Source of the DNA: Octopus vulgaris
Taxonomy: Eukaryota
NCBI GenBank assembly: GCA_951406725.2
Contig: OX597822.1
Coordinates: forward strand, 100,068,001-100,132,000
Direction of reading: 5' to 3'
DNA: 64,000 bases
The notes under the pieces: model-generated
Told to the model about the DNA's origin: nothing
Database searches by the model: none
The model's input: the letters and a program-made list of their open reading frames with translations, nothing else
Made by a program: the position numbers and the translations under genes
Shown here: piece by piece, positions 1-60,499 of the stretch
Layout: every line of letters starts with the position of its first letter
Position numbering within the stretch: position 1 is the stretch's first letter

Positions 1-2536
1 GAGGAAAGGCAGTAGTAGGGAATTGTATCAGACTGCGAAAAGAGAAGCTAGGAGACAGGTATATTTAGCTAGAGGGGAAGCAGATAAGAAAAAATTTGCC
101 AATGTTCTGCGCCGTGAGGACCAAAGACTTGAGGTGTTTCGTGTTGCAAGACAGTGTGTGAGAGAGAATCGTGATGTGGTAGGAGAGAAGTGTGTTCGCA
201 TGGATGATGGTTCACTTGCGCTAAATGAGGATGCAAAGAGAGAGGTTTGGAGATGCCACTATGAAAGGTTGCTCAACAAAGAGAATGAATGGGATAAAGA
301 GAGTCTGCCGAATGTCGACCCAATAGAGGGACCAGCTATCCGAGTTGACAGTTCCATGGTAGTTAAGGCAATTGGAAGCATGAAGACAGGGAAAGCCCCA
401 GGCCCATCAGGAATTACTGCTGAGATGCTCAAAATATCTGGCAGTGTTGGCTATAGCCTAGTCACCCGTATAGTTAACCAGGTGATACACAAAGGAGTCA
501 TACCCAATGACTGGTGTAGTAGCATAATAGTCAACTGCTACAAAGGTAAAGGTGACACCCTAGATACAAGTAATTACAGAGGTATTAAGCTGTTGGATCA
601 GGTAATGAAGGTTATGGAAAGGGTCATAGCCCAACTGATTAGAGAGAGAGCCAACCTAGACGAGATGCAGTTTGGTTTCATGCCAGGGAAAAGCACCACT
701 GATGCCATATTTCTGGTGAGACAGCTGCAGGAGAAATACCTAGCCAAAGATAAAACTCTGTACCTGGCTTTCGTTGACTTGGAGAAAGCCTTTGACAGGG
801 TCCCCCGATCCCTTATCTGGTGGTCAATGAGGAAACTAGGGATAGATGAATGGTTAGTGAGAGCTGTGCGTGCCATGTACAGGGACGCTGTTAGTAACGT
901 GAGGGTTGGCAACGAGTACAATGAAGAATTCCGGGTGGAGGTTGGGGTCCACGAAGGCTTAGTCCTCAGCCCCCTCCTATTTATCATAGTCTCCAGGCAA
1001 TAACAGAGGAATTCAAGACAGGATGCCCCTGGGAGCTCCTCTATGCTGACGACCTTGCTCTAATTGTTGAATCACGATCAGAACTCGAGGTGAAATTTCA
1101 GGCATGGAAGCAAGGATTAGAATCGAAGGGCCTTAGAGTCAATCTAGCTAAAACCAAAGTCCTAATAAGTAGGAAGGTAGACAAATCTCAAACGCCTTCA
1201 AGTAGATGGCCCTGCTCGATCTGTAGAAAAGGCGTAGGTAGGAACTCTATAAGATGCACCAAGTGTAAGCTATGGACACATAAGAGGTGCAGCAATGTCA
1301 AAGGAAGGCTAACTAGGAAGATAGTTTTGTATGTGGCAGATGCTCTGGTTCAATAAAGACTGAAGATGCACAGAGACCATCTTCCGTCACATTCCAGGGA
1401 GAAAAACTTGAAATAGGTGGTAGTTTCCATTACCTAGGTGACCAAGTCAGTAGTGGGGGTGGGTGTGCCGAAAGTGTAACTGCTAGAGTAAGAATAGCCT
1501 GGGCAAAGTTCAGAGAGCTCTTACCTCTGCTGGTGACAAAAGGCCTCTCACTCAGAGTAAAAGGCAGACTGTATGACGCATATGTGCGAACAGCCATGCT
1601 ACATGGCAGTGAAACATGGGCCGTGACTGCTGAGGATATGCATAAGCTTGCAAGAAATGAAGCCAGTATGCTCCGTTGGATGTGTAATGTCAGTGTTCAT
1701 ACCCGACAGAGTGTAAGTGCTTTGAGAGAAAAGTTGGACCTAAGAAGCATCAGATGTGGTGTGCAAGAGAGGCGTCTACGCTGGTATGGACACGTAGTAA
1801 GAATGGATGAAGATAGTTGTGTGAAAAAGTGACACACCCTAGCGGTTGAGGGAACCCGTGGAAGAGGTAGACCCAGGAAAACCTGGGACGAGGTGGTGAA
1901 GAATGACCTTTGCGCTTTAGGTCTCACCGAGGAAATGACCAGAGAAGTATGCTGTGCACGAGAAGACCCGGCAGGACACGTGAGGCCATAACCCATGGCC
2001 CCTACCTGGGACGCAGTCAGTCCACCTGTGCATACCTTCCTTCTTGGGACACATAACTCTACTTGTGAAGACCTGTTCAGGCAAGTGAAAATCAAATCAA
2101 ATCAAAATCGATGAACATCAATGGAATTTGTATCTTTGTGGTACCAGTGCTGGTGGCACATAAGAAAACCATCCGAACGTGGCCGTTGCCAGTACCGCAT
2201 CGACTGGCCTCCGTGCTGTGGGCACGTAACAAATACCATCCGATCGTGGCCGTGCCAGCCTCGCCTGGCCTCCGTGCCGGTGGCACGTAAAAAACACCAT
2301 CCGAGCGTGGCCGTTCGCCAGCCTCGTCTGGCACCTGTGTCGGTGGCACATAAAAAGCACCCACTACACTCATGGAGTGGTTGGCGTTAGGAAGGGCATC
2401 CAGCTGTAGAAACACTGCCAGATCTGACTGGCCTGGTGCAGCCTTTGGGCTTCCCAGACCCCAGTTGAACCGTCCAACCCATGCTAGCATGGAAAGCGGA
2501 CGTTAAACGATGATGATGATGATGATGATGATGATG
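1..2536 (+). mobile_element. RTE-type LINE, 3' part of ORF2 (RT plus Cys/His finger), frameshifted, with stem-loop 3' UTR and (GAT)n tail
   Basis: ORF 23-1003 has non-LTR RT motifs (GKAPGPSG, NYRGIKLL, QFGFMPGKSTTDAIF, FVDLEKAFDRV). LLYADDL follows in another frame at about 1035-1055. RTE-type C-terminal motifs LHGSETW and RRLRWYGHV are in ORF 1533-1832. The element ends in a GAT microsatellite. Confidence 0.95.
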
Positions 2537-14990: not shown

Positions 14991-15068
14991 ACTCAGAATT
15001 GCACCTTCTTCATTAAGTATTTGGTATCCAACAGAGCCAGGAATTTTGTCCATGTTTAAAGCAGCCAT
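14991..15068 (-). CDS. LAMTOR4: LAMTOR4 first coding exon (MAALNMDKIPGSVGYQILNEEGAILS)
   Basis: 78 nt; acceptor ctcttttgcag directly before ATG, donor gtaagt. Resembles human [20 protein letters not shown] as recalled. The three exons splice to 95 aa. Confidence 0.93.
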
Positions 15069-20430: not shown

Positions 20431-21621
20431 ATTAGAGCTAGTTCAATAAAATGAATTGATTGAAATAATACATCATAAATATGGACAAGTTAACATGAAA
20501 AATGAACTGTGGTAAATTTGATGTTGTGTCCCATAATTTAAGAAAGATTCGGGTGATTTAGATTTCAAAATGAATATCGCAGGTCGGCAATTATGTAGAC
20601 AAACAGTTATATTTACGTTTAAGACGGTTTAACTAGAGCTAAATAATGTTACAATACAGATAAGTCAGCATGTCCAATCTGAATAAATCGATAGTTTTAA
20701 TTTGAAGCTAAGATATAAGGAGTTCAATCGTTAAGGCATGGACTTTGAGACTTTTGTCGGCTCTTTTAAAACCCAGTTACAAGATACACAAAGTCACTGG
20801 AGACGCGAGGTTATATACAATTAGAAACAAAAACAAAAATTCCAAAATCAGCTAATTAAAGAAGTTAATTTTTCCAATAATTGAAACTCGTATTAATGTT
20901 CTTACACCCAAATATTATTTCATGAAAGATCGTAATTTTAATTTTAAAGAAATCTATTTGTCTTTAATGTTCCACACCGACCTGAATGATTAATTGAAAT
21001 GTGCCCAGTTTAAAAAAATAAATATCCGGCAATCTTTCGTCTTCGGTGTATGTGTATATGTATGTATATTACTTCAAAAGTTCCCGCAAGCCCATATGTA
21101 AAAAAAAAAAAAAATTTTTACGGAAATCGACGGAAAGGTCTACTATAGACGAAAGATCGCCAAATATCCAAACGTCTCTTTCAGTAAGATATACTTAAAA
21201 CAATTGTTAATTTGAAGGAACAAAACCGTAAATATTTTTTACTTAATGCAAAAATTAAAATGTTGATGTCTCAATTATAAAAGATTAATGTAAAACCACG
21301 ACGTGAAACATTCTGTATCAAGAGAAGACCAGTCGATAATCTAAGCCAGCTCCTAAATAATCCAGAACCTATTTCTTACGAGAAATGCGCAAAAATAAAA
21401 GAAAAAGTTACTGTTGCGTTATAAGGAATCACAAAATTACGAAGCATTTTGGATTAGGATGGAGCTTATATTTATAAAGTGTTGCAGAGGAAATTCCAAA
21501 TAAAAATACTAAAGTGAAGAGAGAAGAATACTTCTAAATAATATTTGAAGCATGCAATAAGTCTAAGAGGTAGAAATACCGACAAATATCGGTAAATATT
21601 TCGATATAATTCCATAAATAC

Positions 21622-21645
21622 CTTAGATCGTCCTCAATATTAATC
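21622..21645 (-). other. LAMTOR4: Probable non-coding first exon of LAMTOR4 (5' boundary uncertain)
   Basis: The ATG exon starts at a splice acceptor, so an upstream exon is required. A donor AAG|gtattt at 21622/21621 lies in the CpG-rich island next to promoter motifs. Confidence 0.45.
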
Positions 21646-21661
21646 TGTACAAAAACATAGG

Positions 21662-21669
21662 GTCACGTG
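21662..21669. promoter_or_regulatory. CLEAR-like E-box GTCACGTG (MiT/TFE or USF type)
   Basis: Matches the first 8 nt of the CLEAR consensus GTCACGTGAC, just upstream of the inferred LAMTOR4 start. Confidence 0.6.
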
Positions 21670-21717
21670 CTATAGTAAATTAAAAGGACAAGGGAGAGCA
21701 CTCCACCGGTGGCACAA

Positions 21718-21726
21718 GCGGAAGTG
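21718..21726 (+). promoter_or_regulatory. ETS/GABP-type site GCGGAAGTG
   Basis: CGGAAGTG core, typical of housekeeping and bidirectional promoters. Confidence 0.55.
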
Positions 21727-22281
21727 AGTGCAGCAATTGCTCCGGGCTTAGTTATTAAGAAAACAGCATAAAATTAAATTATGTAATACTTTTCTCTTTT
21801 CTTTAATAACAGTTAAATAATAAAAATTTCTGTTCCTTTTTATACCGTTTCTATATGAAATAATTTAATTTTCCTAGTCTACCTTCTTTTTATGCTTTAC
21901 ATATATATATAAATATATAGTTGATGAGATCTTGGAATAAATTCTCCTAAATTAACTTAGGTCAAATAGTAATTGGAATTATAATTAATTTTGTATATAT
22001 TTTTCTGACCAGCTGAATATATATATATGTACATATAATATACACATACATATGCACATTTATTTATTTATTTATTTATTTAGCCCTATCCGTTTATATC
22101 TCAGACCGAGGACGGAAATGTCATACTGCTCATAATATAATTAAATGTAAAAATCTAACCTAACATTGTTGGATGACTAAATAAAGTTGAAAAAAAAATT
22201 ATCCCGTATTTTAAATTATTATATATATATATTTTTTTAAAAACTCATTCTAATGTCGACGCCCCCACCTTCGATTCTTCC

Positions 22282-22289
22282 TCATGTGA
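22282..22289. promoter_or_regulatory. M-box TCATGTGA (MITF/TFEB type)
   Basis: Exact TCAYGTGA match 125 nt upstream of the UVRAG ATG. Confidence 0.5.
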
Positions 22290-22406
22290 TCTGGCATAAT
22301 AACAAACATGGTGGTCCTGTCCTCAGCGAGTGTCTCTCTTATTAACATCCACTCAACATCTGTGCACCAAACATGGAAATAAGTCTTAGCGCAAAGCAGT
22401 TTTGTA

Positions 22407-22463
22407 ATGGCTAGTGATAGTGACTGCATCGTGAGCAATGTCTTTGAATTGGCAACTCAACAG
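22407..22463 (+). CDS. UVRAG: UV radiation resistance-associated gene protein (Vps38), coding exon 1 (MASDSDCIVSNVFELATQQ)
   Basis: In-frame upstream stop at 22380; donor CAG|gtaaag, phase 0. ELATQQ joins KRIRHL, giving the UVRAG signature (human ELPSQQRRLRHL as recalled). Confidence 0.88.
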
Positions 22464-24110
22464 GTAAAGAAATTATGGGGTTTTTTTCCCCTTTTCCTTT
22501 TCCTTTCCCCCCATGTGTTGTCGTCTTTTGCAGACCGGACTCGTTGGCGATGGACATAAATTTATATCTTACAAGCTGAATTTAATTGCTTATTAATTTT
22601 TCTTTGCACTTTGTGAATAATTTATTATCAACGAAATAGAAATAGAGATTTATAATAATATATTTATCTTCTAACTATTCTCTTAAGAAATTGAATTTGT
22701 CCCGTTATAATTTTTTGGATCTGTCGACTTTTAACTTTCGGCTGCTATTTTCGTTTCCCCGATGACGCCTCTTTTCATAATCACGATTTTTATTACGAAA
22801 TTAAATACCGACCTCCTCATATTCCCTTCACATAAATCATCCTTAATCTTTTTCTTATAGAGAACAAAAATTATTTAAATATATATTTTCAATCAATCAA
22901 TAAATAACATACATCTAAGTTTATTCTAACCTTTTAAATCCACAACTTCCTCACAAAATATTTCAAGAGTATTATTGAATAAGCGGTTTAAAGATTCACC
23001 CGTCGTTACCTCTTTTCTACTTCATTATTTTATTTTGCGCTCAAATTAATGCACGGCTGCATAATTACACATGCAATAAAAATCTGTGTGCATGTTTGAA
23101 GCATATAGTTGCTATTTCACCATAAATAAACTGATAAATTGAAATTTATATCTATGCATAAAATAAACATATATTGGAATTTAATAAAGGAAAGGAAGCA
23201 ATTTCTGCAATCATTTAGTAGTTATCATTAACTGAGATATTCAGAATATCACACACAGCTAATTGTGTGATAATACTGCAGTAATACCGTTTTTATCAGG
23301 TTTCGTTATTGACTTTTATTTGCATACCCTTTTGATTGTGGCTTTCCTAATTTATCATGATAATTACCGGTTGAAATTAAAAAATAGGTACTATAATTCA
23401 TCAATTAGTTAGTTAACAATTGAGTTTTTCGATATTATTTCAATCCAATTCTTGTTTTTGTTATATTCAACAATCTATAATATTGTTATAGTGTTGTGGT
23501 TGCTTTATTCTGTTGGGAAGCACGCAAGGAAGGATCCGCCTCCTAAATCTATGATGTAGATATAGCAAAAATCTCGCTTGTTAGTGCTTTGCTTTTTAAT
23601 TATTTAATCGAATGCTAGGAATTTACGCTGTCTATTATCTTTTACGTTCTTCTTAACATAATTCGATTTGGAAATATAAAAAATCGCTGCCTCGATTTAT
23701 TTTACGGAGATAATTTCCTAATGTATCTAATTAATCACAGAAAGCGAACAGACGAAATAAAACCACCACTAGGCCGTTTGTTTGTTGATTGCTCTTATAA
23801 ATTAGATGTCATTAGACTGTCGAAGCTATACGTTATATTTATTTGAAGGTCTGTCCCCCACTCTGATGAATTATACTAATTTTTAATTCGTCTTAATCCT
23901 TATTCTTTTTTAGTATTTGTGTATGTGATTTGTTTCAGCGTTATTGTCGTCAGTATTAGTATTTGCTAGCCTTTCGTTTCCATCGGTCCTCGCTTGAGAT
24001 TACGAATCACACCCCCTTACTCATACACTCCGAAACTAGACAACCCCAGATCCCTTTGAATTCACAATTGTAGGGCCCCATGTCTAATATACATACATAA
24101 TATATACATC

Positions 24111-25539: not shown

Positions 25540-27620
25540 GGAGAGTGTTTTGAAAGCATAGTAGCCAGAGTAAGAATGAGTTTTATAGAAAATGATTTTG
25601 TAAGCTATAACCTCTGCTAGTAACGATGGACTTCTTCATCTGAAGGAAGCGTAGATTGTATGATGCTTGTGTATGAAGTGTACTGCTACATGACAGCAAG
25701 GTAAGATGTGGACCGGGAAGAAATGAAGTATACATGCTTCACTGGATGTGTAATGTCAGTGTACATGAATGATAGAATATTGTTGGATTGAGAGAAAATC
25801 TGGATATAAAGGGCACTAGATATACAGTGGCAGCCATAATATAAGGGTCAGTAAGTACAAGTGTATTGAAATAGTTATTATAGAAGATTGACAACATGTT
25901 GAGACAAGATATTTTACACATATTTAGATATATCTAATATCTATCTGTCATGAAAAGTTCAAGTGAATAGAATAAATATTTCGTGAGTTATGAGGAAATA
26001 AGCAATCTTCTAAATTGCACCTGCCAAAAGTTAAGGGTCACATAGAAAAAGGGAATTACTAACCGAGGTATTTGTTGTTTAGAAGACTATTAATGGGCTA
26101 ACAGTTACTTCTTATGATATTACATTATTGGAACATTCAACTGTCACCATGGCAGCTTGTGAGAGATGACCAGTGTCCTGTGATGGAAAACAAAGGATTG
26201 TGTGCCTTCACCAAGAGGGCAAATCAAATTCTGTGATAGCAACTACTGTAGGAAGGTCTGGAAGTGTTGTGCAATGAATTGTAGCTCATTTTAAGTCATC
26301 AGGATTGATGGAGGTTAAACCCCAAACCAGTAGACCTCGTAAAACCTCACCTAGACAGGATCGTATTATGGTTAGAATGTCGCTGAATGACAGGTTTGGG
26401 AGTGCTGCTGAGATAATCTGAGAGTTTAGCTCCACTTCTTATATCAATGTATCGCACAAAACAGTTTCTCGGAGGTTACGAGGTTCTGGGTTGCTTGCTC
26501 GAGTACCGGCAAAGAAACTTCTGATCTCCAAGAAGAATTAGAGCCTGTCTTCATTTTGCTCACAAACATGTCGTTTGGACTGAAGAACAGTGGTCTTAGG
26601 TTCATTTTAGCGATGAATCGAAGTTTAATATGATTGGTTCCGATGGCAGGATGTACGTACGACGAAGAAGTGGCGAAAGTTTATTTCGTGCATGTGTGAA
26701 AAAGACAGTGAAATATGGAGGATGCAGTGTAATAGTATGGGGAGTGATCTCTGCTGCTGGTCCTGGTCCACTTATTCGCCTACAAGGGACTGTCAATGCT
26801 GAAATCTACAAGCAGATTCTTAGACGATATGTCTTTCCACATCTCCTTTCCTCGTCAGTTCAACTCCCTATCTTCGTGCAGGACAACGCTCCCTACCACA
26901 CTGCGAAGAGAGTCAAAGGTTTTTTGAGAGATGAAATGGTTGATCTCATGGACTGGTCATTTCAAAGTCCCGATCTTGACCCTAAAGAAAACGTTTGGAA
27001 GATTATTGGAGACGGGGCTGGAGGGAGAAGTCCAAAGAACTAAGATGGTCTCTGGGAATTATTGAAAAGCGAATGGAACAATATTACTCTATCATTTTGC
27101 AAGAAATTAGTTCAGTCCTGTGGTAACAAATGTCAGGAGATCATTGATAGTAAAGGGATGTTCACAAAATATTAATTGTGAGGGCTTCCTTTTTGTTTTT
27201 ATTCCACTTTTCATTGTTTTTCTAAGTGACCCTTAACTTTTGGCCGTTGCAATTTGGAAGATTATTTGTTTATTTCCTCATAGCTTATGAAATATTTATT
27301 CCATTCACATGTAATTTTCACGAAAGATTGATAATAGATATATCTAAATATGTGTATAATATCTAGTCTCATAGTTTGTTGATCTTCTGTAATAAATATT
27401 TCAATACACTTGTTCTTACTAACCATTATATTACAAGCGCTACTGCAGTGCACAGGAGGGAAGATTGTGGCTGGTATGAGTATATGATGTGTATGGGGGA
27501 TGACAACTGTATAAGGTAATGCTGTGCACTCAAAGTGAATGGAATCTGTGTAAGAGGAAGACCAAGAAAGACTAATCTCAAGATGTGATGTCACATGAGG
27601 GAGATGATAAAGGACTATAT
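25540..27620 (+). mobile_element. Old RTE LINE 3' fragment split by the Tc1 insertion
   Basis: 25540-25824 and 27446-27620 rejoin colinearly with LINE positions about 1470-1900. Confidence 0.75.
25825..27445 (+). mobile_element. Tc1-family DNA transposon (DD34E) with about 220-bp IR/DR termini; transposase pseudogene about 26149-27175
   Basis: TA|CAGTGG left end; long inverted repeats at about 25825-26050 and 27218-27445. Motifs FSDESKFN, QDNAPYH and SPDLDPKENVW, with 34 residues between the second D and the E. Internal stops and a frameshift. Confidence 0.93.
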
Positions 27621-52260: not shown

Positions 52261-52381
52261 AAAAGGATCCGTCATTTGAAAAGTGTCTCCTTGCGGAATC
52301 TAGTGTACAAAGACGAACTAGGGACAGACAATAACAAATTGTCAACATTTTTTACACTACATACCGATGCAAAATCACCAG
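52261..52381 (+). CDS. UVRAG: UVRAG coding exon 2, start of the C2 domain (KRIRHLKSVSLRNLVYKDELGTDNNKLSTFFTLHTDAKSP)
   Basis: Acceptor ttcttatttgcag, donor CAG|gtaata, 121 nt. Matches human RRLRHLRNIAARNIV...TYFTLH as recalled. Confidence 0.93.
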
Positions 52382-52745: not shown

Positions 52746-54012
52746 TAGAGTTGAGGAATAATTCATGAGCATTTTTTTTCAAACTTATTTTAAACAAAAA
52801 AGCTACAACAGATTAATAGTATACTCTCCATTGTTGTTTATGACTTCCTCCCATCATTCAATAAGTTTTTCGATGCTTCGGCAATAGGAATCTCCTGGTC
52901 TTGACTCAAAGAATTCATCCAACCAAGCCTTCGTTAGTGAACGACACACAACACGGTGTTCGAAAGCAGTCAGAAGAGATGAAAATCAGATGGTGCCAAG
53001 ACTGGAGAGTATGGAGGATGAGGCAACACTTCCCATTCGAGTTCTTGCGTCAAGGCTTTGATCATACTGGTGATGTGGGGATGGGCATTGTTGTGTTGCA
53101 GAAGAATGCTATTTCGCCTGTTCAGTCTTTTTTGTTGAATTGCTTCATTGAATCAGTGCAGTTGTTGAACTCTGTAATTCTGCATTGAGTGTTTGGTTGT
53201 GCTCAAGCAGTTCATAATGAAGTATGCCTTCCCAGTCCCACCATACACACACATGGTCTTTCGAGGATGAAGGTCTTGTTTTATTTGCAGAGTTGCTTGT
53301 TTGTCAGGGCTGAGCCATTCTTTTCGCTCCTTCATATTGATGTAACGGTACCATTTTTCATCACCAGTAACAATGCAGTAAAGAAAACACATTTTGTAAC
53401 TATGTGTTGAGCAATGTCAAGCAAGCAAACTGGTGGCAGTTATGGAGTGTTGATTTTTGTTGTTTTTCACTCGATGTGTGTGGCACTCAAGTGCCAAGTT
53501 TCTGAACCTCACCCATTCAGTGAGGGTGGTTCACCACAATTTTTTTATCACAGTCCATCTGCTCTACCAATTCTCTGGTCGTTTGACATGGATTTTCATG
53601 AAGTTGATTCAATTGCTCTTCATCAAACTCAATTAGCTGACCAGTGTGTGATCCATCCTTGAGGTAAAAATTCCCATTTTTGAAGCATGAAAACCAATGG
53701 CAGGCGGTACTTTGAAGCATTGCTCCTTCTCCATACACAGCTCAAATCTCACGAGCAGCTTCAGCCATCTTTACACCTTGATTAAATGCAAAAAGCAAAT
53801 GGTGTCGAAAATGCCCAGTTTTGTCCACTTGACATTTCATTTTAATGATCTGAAAATACACTAAAATCAATGAAATTAAAAAATCAAAACACACTATCTT
53901 GTAGAGCAAAAAATTCTCTTTTAAATAATGCAGAACATTTTGCCAATGTGTTTTATTTCTGCGTGCATTTTTAAATTTGAAAAAAATGCTCATGAATTAT
54001 TCCTCAACCCAA
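52746..54012 (-). mobile_element. Mariner transposon, full span with transposase pseudogene
   Basis: TIRs (T)TGGGTTGAGGAATAATTCATGAGCATTTTTTT, with TA at 54013. Motifs IVTGDEKW, LHPRKTM, HNNAHPH and HPPYSPVLAPSDFHLF; multiple frameshifts. Confidence 0.93.
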
Positions 54013-60464: not shown

Positions 60465-60499
60465 CCTTTTATACCAGTGAAAAAATTTCTGGGTCTTTA
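60465..60499 (+). CDS. UVRAG: UVRAG coding exon 3 ((A)FYTSEKISGSL)
   Basis: Long polypyrimidine tract plus acag, donor gtaagt, 35 nt, phase 1 to 0. Matches human EFYRSEVIKNSL as recalled. Confidence 0.9.

Follow-up and report, generated by a model that had tools for sequence, protein, structure and literature searches.

In the genome of Octopus vulgaris the genes LAMTOR4 (minus strand) and UVRAG (plus strand) are divergent neighbours, as seen from exon models and RNA contigs in the window analysed here, a stretch of 64 kb (assembly GCA_951406725.2, contig OX597822.1, positions 100,068,001 to 100,132,000; coordinates below are those of the window). We propose, with middling confidence, that the two genes form a conserved divergent pair with a shared open region, in which Mitf likely acts on UVRAG, and USF, Mitf or both are predicted to act on LAMTOR4. 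The gene pairing itself is of a familiar type; the additions made here are the conserved adjacency and a lead to an octopus dCLEAR site, dCLEAR being the Mitf element of insects.

The LAMTOR4 coding exons on the minus strand, 15068-14991 (ATG directly after the acceptor), 11846-11732 and 7836-7742 (to the stop codon), encode exactly residues 7-101 of protein record P0008, which matches human LAMTOR4 in PDB with an E value of 6e-11; the end of an RNA contig also places the first of them, and the inner junctions are predicted from the match to P0008. On the plus strand, translation from the UVRAG ATG at 22407 on into the exon at 52261 reproduces the start of the Octopus UVRAG record P0002 without a mismatch. 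Exon 1 (22248..22463, leader plus the first 19 codons) and exon 2 (52261..52381) agree with both P0002 and a contig of run X7, exon 3 (60465..60499) comes from the exon model, and the gene ends ~41 kb past the window end. Contigs from four public runs were aligned to 21300-22700; none of the runs is recorded as RNA, and X1 and X7 were treated as such on account of their spliced contigs, X18 and X20 as DNA-type runs. One X7 contig (depth 100.7) covers 21622-21680 and then the first 30 bases of the LAMTOR4 coding exon at 15068, 6.5 kb off. Because of this junction the LAMTOR4 non-coding first exon (21622..21680, minus strand, donor GT at 21621, 5' end at or beyond 21680) is real. A second X7 contig runs from 22248 to 22463 and continues into UVRAG exon 2, with a further 46 letters on its 5' side that are unplaced (a skipped repeat). 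Run X1 adds two contigs: a spliced one for UVRAG that starts at 22288, and one for LAMTOR4 that reads unspliced from 21650 into the intron. Contig depth gives no basis for ranking the genes by expression.

The X7 contig ends at 21680 and 22248 leave an untranscribed gap of at most 567 bp; contig ends are bounds rather than exact transcription starts, and longer leaders would only shrink the gap. The divergent starts on the spliced contigs are therefore less than 1 kb apart, as in head-to-head genes. The divergent layout given in the preliminary description is confirmed by the exon models that match P0008 and P0002 and by the spliced X7 contigs. Its figure of 0.8 kb for the region between the genes holds as the distance from the LAMTOR4 donor to the UVRAG ATG, but not for the shorter untranscribed gap. 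The gap region consists of two GC-richer cores (~50% guanine plus cytosine, GC, in 100-bp windows) flanking an AT-rich spacer of 21% GC with short simple repeats (21760..22240), an anatomy that looks more like two close promoters than one element. An Rfam scan of window positions 13000-64000 gave no match, a PF10186 profile search of the host genome (2.8 Gb) recovered no UVRAG exon, and a PDB search with a single LAMTOR4 exon gave no match.

Linkage in other genomes was judged by accession order and contig size in 12 species with records for both genes. Consecutive accessions were found in all four octopods and in two scallops: O. vulgaris (CAI9728361-2 and 63; the species of the window, so not independent), O. 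bimaculoides (XP_014768619-20 and 617-8), O. sinensis (XP_036362208 and 207), Argonauta hians (GAB1603352 and 351), Argopecten irradians (XP_069105068-9 and 067) and Mizuhopecten yessoensis (XP_021374289-91 and 288, on one 585-kb scaffold). A third scallop, Ylistrum balloti, is near-consecutive (within 3 numbers, on one 1.4-Mb scaffold), and in Pecten maximus the genes share a contig by size only. Adjacency in other molluscs, named as a check when the pair was first described, is borne out by this proxy for octopods and scallops. Since the genes appear adjacent in both groups, the linkage is most likely older than the cephalopod-bivalve split. In the hemichordate Glandiceps talaboti both genes are assigned to the same 25.03-Mb contig, again by size only; their accession numbers differ by 123, a figure without meaning here, given that the neighbouring O. 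sinensis genes differ by 412 in an earlier series. Human LAMTOR4 and UVRAG are unlinked, one being on chromosome 7 and the other on chromosome 11; the two regions are probably paralogues from whole-genome duplication, and a split of this kind would fit reciprocal loss. Among seven metagenome loci scanned for a second copy of the pair, UVRAG was present in none. Four intronless metagenome contigs (L014-L017) carry a LAMTOR4 open reading frame (ORF) followed at once by a same-strand ORF of 470 amino acids, possibly as dicistronic transcripts; the second ORF is WD40 by Pfam in the two that were scanned, and we take it to be PLRG1-like. On another contig of 3.6 kb (L012, 106-2979) a Golgin-A5 ORF (PF09787) stands upstream of LAMTOR4 on the same strand, both ORFs being intronless.

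Coleoid genomes have been strongly reshuffled: 71% of the single-copy genes in new cephalopod microsyntenies are on different scallop chromosomes, and retained squid microsyntenies co-express (PMC9023564). Long-retained pairs are mostly 5'-5' and co-expressed, with 68.6% being 5'-5' in Lottia (PMC3514665). The closest class known to us is that of the conserved 5'-5' microsyntenic pairs of Irimia et al. (2012; PMC3514665), for example HSPE1-HSPD1 and HADHA-HADHB, which are likewise non-paralogous, functionally related, divergent and less than 1 kb apart. Their adjacency across distant lineages is matched here through the accession proxy in molluscs only (plus the same contig in a hemichordate), with a split in lampreys; that class is co-expressed and 5'-5', whereas the orientation of LAMTOR4 and UVRAG was read in this genome alone. 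A literature search for LAMTOR4-UVRAG linkage found no report of it among the papers listed; UVRAG is not mentioned in the main text of PMC3514665, and the pair may be in its supplementary pair list, which was outside the scope of the search.

Three putative regulatory sites lie at the positions given in the preliminary description, where the first and third were placed at the two ends of the intergenic region: an E-box, GTCACGTG, at 21662..21669, an ETS-type site, GCGGAAGT ((G)CGGAAGT), at 21718..21725 (plus strand), and an M-box, TCATGTGA, at 22282..22289 (plus strand). Both boxes are inside the transcribed leaders rather than between the transcripts. The E-box belongs to LAMTOR4 exon 1 and is separated from the contig end by 11 bases, and the ETS-type site is ~40 bp upstream of that end. 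The M-box is identical to the insect dCLEAR 8-mer and belongs to the UVRAG leader, where it precedes the ATG by 125 bp. The two boxes occupy separate GC-richer cores, ~610 bp apart. In Drosophila and other insects TCATGTGA is the Mitf dCLEAR element, enriched from -50 to +150 of the start (PMC10452791); the octopus copy, 34 to ~80 bases inside the UVRAG contig end, falls within this range. GTCACGTG is present as a single copy in 264 kb around the locus, from which the full CLEAR palindrome GTCACGTGAC is absent; LAMTOR4 carries GTCACGTGCT instead, an 8/10 match to the palindrome and equally the USF consensus. There was no motif enrichment across the window (3 seen versus 5.46 expected, and 1 versus 0.42). 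The positions of the boxes are unusual although the window-wide counts are at chance level: local dinucleotide shuffles gave P values of 0.003 (LAMTOR4 core) and 0.012-0.023 (UVRAG core), and a strict site (GTCACGTG or TCAYGTGA) is found in 62 of 3201 genomic tiles of 300 bp (970 kb of genomic stretches). These shuffle and tile figures are post hoc, and promoters carry more E-boxes than bulk DNA.

The candidate factors are encoded in the genome. Mitf is represented by a PF15951 match and by a basic helix-loop-helix (bHLH) region on the same contig (E 5e-10 versus MITF); the gene is intact, and its basic region, read across a splice junction, has Ile before ERRRR. USF is encoded as well (E 9e-11 to USF2). 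A first search by bHLH pattern was uninformative. We then compared the promoters of eight other lysosomal genes with those of nine housekeeping controls (four proteasome and five CCT genes), under gene names that we assigned from Pfam matches and N-terminal sequences. A strict site within 300 bp upstream of the ATG was present in 3/8 lysosomal genes and 0/9 controls, and 3/8 against the 62/3201 tiles gives a binomial probability of 4e-4. All three positives are TCATGTGA, at -77 in V1G, -109 in V0D and -126 in V1D, compared with -125 in UVRAG; the approximate places of these ATGs are C2:174468770, C1:53938400 and C11:66840270, respectively. The strict motif was set before the test; the 300-bp rule was written after V1G, V0D, RagA and four proteasome genes had been seen, so that among the positives only V1D, one of five lysosomal genes added later, postdates it. 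With the looser TCAYGTG the counts are 4/8 versus 1/9. UVRAG shares TCATGTGA in sequence and position with three V-ATPase genes, and this modestly supports the idea that Mitf acts on UVRAG, which is probable for this predicted site. The three V-ATPase genes with TCATGTGA 77-126 bp before the ATG also provide a lead for an octopus Mitf regulon. The likeness is to the insect regulon, in which 15 V-ATPase genes of flies respond to Mitf (PMC10452791): UVRAG and 3/6 octopus V-ATPase genes tested have the identical 8-mer, as a predicted site, close to where the transcript starts or just within it, and in the other half the 300 bp next to the ATG hold no site, introns being unscored. None of the papers listed in a literature search on Mitf and lysosomal or autophagic control in octopus deals with this, judged by titles and the openings of abstracts. 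Upstream of V1A and V0B, E-boxes crowd together in what resembled CLEAR arrays; these clusters lie in repeats and were rejected. Intron 1 of ATP6V0B (L149) contains an inverted repeat of 1.3 kb with GGTCACGTG units in tandem, which holds eight strict sites in 600 bp.

Several observations weigh against a Mitf-linked, conserved pair. The contrast of 3/8 and 0/9 is not significant alone (Fisher one-sided, 0.082), and 5/8 lysosomal genes (V1F, V0C, V0B, RagA and GABARAP) have no strict site. The position of the ATG was used in place of the transcription start, and 15 genes were dropped because their first coding exon could not be established or because the exon with the ATG lies behind an acceptor (RagC, V1A, GABARAPL2, three LC3-like genes, PSMA1, PSMA4, PSMA5, CCT2, CCT3, CCT7, HSP60, ATP5A and ATP5G); two chaperonin-like genes were also excluded. 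The UVRAG site is without a 5' purine flank. Sequence identity among the runs adds no power: 21662-21669 is unchanged in X7, X18 and X20 and 22282-22289 in X7 (both DNA-type runs, X18 and X20, leave the UVRAG box uncovered), and these relatives are ~97-99% identical to the window in any case. The accession numbers used as a proxy for linkage show neither orientation nor distance, and the two genes are on different contigs in the lampreys Lethenteron and Petromyzon and in Bulinus. As proof of loss in gastropods, Bulinus was set aside, its LAMTOR4 record being partial and the species tetraploid. A spacing of 30-60 bp between GTCACGTG and an ETS site as a special architecture was ruled out, with 44 genome-wide matches versus 58 for the reversed control. 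One repeat family makes up 16 of the 44 matches (L057, L059, L061 and 13 more); it is dispersed, carries GTCACGTG and CGGAAGT ~37 bp apart, and could seed E-box/ETS modules.

It could be argued that LAMTOR4 and UVRAG are an ordinary housekeeping divergent pair under ETS and USF control, with nothing special about Mitf and with the shared lysosomal role being coincidental. ETS sites and E-boxes are common in divergent promoters (PMC2077898; PMC10887517; PMC4773876): about 10% of human and 32% of fly genes are head-to-head within 1 kb, GABP is found on more than 80% of human divergent promoters, and in sponges E-boxes are four times as frequent in bidirectional promoters (PMC2077898; PMC4773876). 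The octopus pair shares with the GABP/ETS bidirectional class an ETS site and divergent starts that lie within 1 kb of each other, and differs from it in that a single ETS site stands beside LAMTOR4 only and the 21% GC spacer is not a CpG island (PMC2077898). The controls point the same way, since TCACGTG occurs in the promoters of PSMA6 (~-327, together with two ETS sites) and CCT6 (-36), and USF is encoded. This explanation does not account for TCATGTGA, which fits the V-ATPase pattern in position and sequence and has no counterpart in the nine controls, nor for UVRAG being among the listed TFEB targets in mammals (PMC6003119; PMC11864625). We consider it a serious alternative, though a less probable one. 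For LAMTOR4 taken by itself the predicted site is less specific, and USF, Mitf or general housekeeping control fit equally well. The affinity of MITF is similar for E-, M- and CLEAR boxes; MYC/MAX prefer the CACGTG form, and MITF binds both forms (PMC6355916). The mammalian CLEAR network offers a parallel in that UVRAG is a TFEB target and GTCACGTG lies less than 200 bp from a lysosomal-gene start (PMC6003119; PMC11436898), and in mammals USF2 and TFEB compete at GTCACGTG (PMC11436898).

The conserved-pair reading that we prefer would work as follows. Two close promoters would share one open regulatory region, and this would likely keep the genes together. UVRAG would belong to an insect-like Mitf regulon with V-ATPase genes, so that starvation would raise its expression. 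The ETS site and USF would provide steady LAMTOR4 expression, which Mitf may boost by displacing USF at GTCACGTG. Negative feedback via LAMTOR4 would be unnecessary.

Such feedback was at the centre of the preliminary description, in which one Mitf-driven bidirectional element lifts UVRAG and LAMTOR4 together and the extra Ragulator shuts Mitf off again. A MiT-type site at either end and the old linkage speak for it, as does the dependence of TFEB phosphorylation on LAMTOR-Rag (PMC12910037). RagA (on C7, L088 region) has TCACGTGCT at -258 before its ATG, the same 9-mer as in LAMTOR4 exon 1, which is a hint only. The proposal is set back by the two separate cores, each box being within its own leader, and by the LAMTOR4 box fitting USF as well. 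The feedback gene described in mammals, in the MiT/TFE-RagD-mTORC1 loop, is RagD (PMC6003119), whereas the octopus candidate would be a Ragulator subunit, with its 8/10 box in single copy. Among the papers listed in a literature search on LAMTOR4 as a TFEB target, none treats the topic, judged by titles and the openings of abstracts. Ragulator has five subunits, and LAMTOR4, as one of them, need not be limiting. Control of both genes by a single factor is a conjecture: the LAMTOR4 box is both an 8/10 CLEAR match and a USF consensus, USF is present, and two controls carry TCACGTG. The feedback module is speculation, and we consider it rather improbable.

Another possibility is that the pair is locked by overlapping transcription units, with upstream LAMTOR4 exons beside and inside UVRAG such that a break would harm both genes, and with TCATGTGA acting mainly as a start-stop upstream ORF in the mRNA. 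Two putative upstream LAMTOR4 exons on the minus strand bear on this, both resting on gene-prediction protein records. The coding part of one, predicted from isoform annotation, is at 25368-25324 inside UVRAG intron 1; it agrees at 14/15 positions with the N-terminal extension that isoform X1 has in the O. bimaculoides and O. sinensis annotations, and ends at a GT donor. The other, deduced from the protein, consists of an ATG and donor at 22166-22160 that would supply the extra N-terminus of the O. vulgaris isoform P0008 via an 11-base exon (21632-21622). The LAMTOR4 start claimed near 21.6 kb agrees with the X7 transcript end near 21.6-21.7 kb, but the annotated isoforms imply a first exon 3.7 kb further up, which goes part of the way to refuting the preliminary description, for which a start far from 21.6 kb would count as a refutation. 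In scallops LAMTOR4 has 2-3 accessions per protein, which suggests leader variants. The UVRAG leader (22253..22414, plus strand) contains four upstream ATGs, which open frames of 30 amino acids (22253), a bare start-stop (22284, an ATG-TGA inside the TCATGTGA M-box), 24 amino acids (22308) and 13 amino acids (22373, overlapping the main ATG out of frame). Several upstream ATGs with one overlapping the main ATG are a layout familiar from stress-translated mRNAs. The deep X7 contig, however, uses the proximal LAMTOR4 exon, and overlap and promoter sharing are compatible rather than exclusive. The X1 and X7 contigs have zero cover over 21681-22239, which is no evidence against the upstream exons. 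We judge this explanation to be the least probable of those discussed, with only a slim chance of being the main one. A bolder and doubtful idea combines several of these elements: an ancestral bilaterian Mitf switch that would tie the dose of Ragulator, the mTORC1 anchor, to that of the endolysosomal PI3-kinase complex II through one promoter. Such a switch would have come through the cephalopod reshuffle intact and been broken up in vertebrates, and in octopus a LAMTOR4 first exon antisense to the UVRAG start would tune it.

Some further features of the UVRAG gene and the window were recorded. In two Octopus species the UVRAG isoform X1 includes an alternative exon (91083-91325 in window-continued coordinates), which contributes 78 residues to the coiled-coil region. 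The O. vulgaris UVRAG model P0005 has ~115 C-terminal residues that are absent from other species and is probably mis-joined; we take these residues to resemble a piece of a hAT-type transposase. Window positions 1-1990 are presumably a remnant of a long interspersed nuclear element (LINE)-like reverse transcriptase, and ~26100-27180 and ~52870-53770, both in UVRAG introns, are presumably Tc1/mariner-like transposase remnants.

Where a gene pair has come through the cephalopod rearrangements still adjacent, it is a candidate for genuine constraint on regulation, and this pair unites two lysosomal machines, one upstream and the other downstream of TFEB. The V-ATPase motif result is a separate lead toward an octopus Mitf regulon. 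If Mitf does not bind here, LAMTOR4-UVRAG would be one more old housekeeping pair. If Mitf binds, the 0.8-kb fragment would provide a direct test in molluscs of the Mitf control of lysosomes known from mammals and insects, and also of Ragulator feedback. Should the bilaterian switch prove true, the pair would be a hard-wired accelerator and brake for autophagy and part of the first mollusc Mitf regulon to be described.

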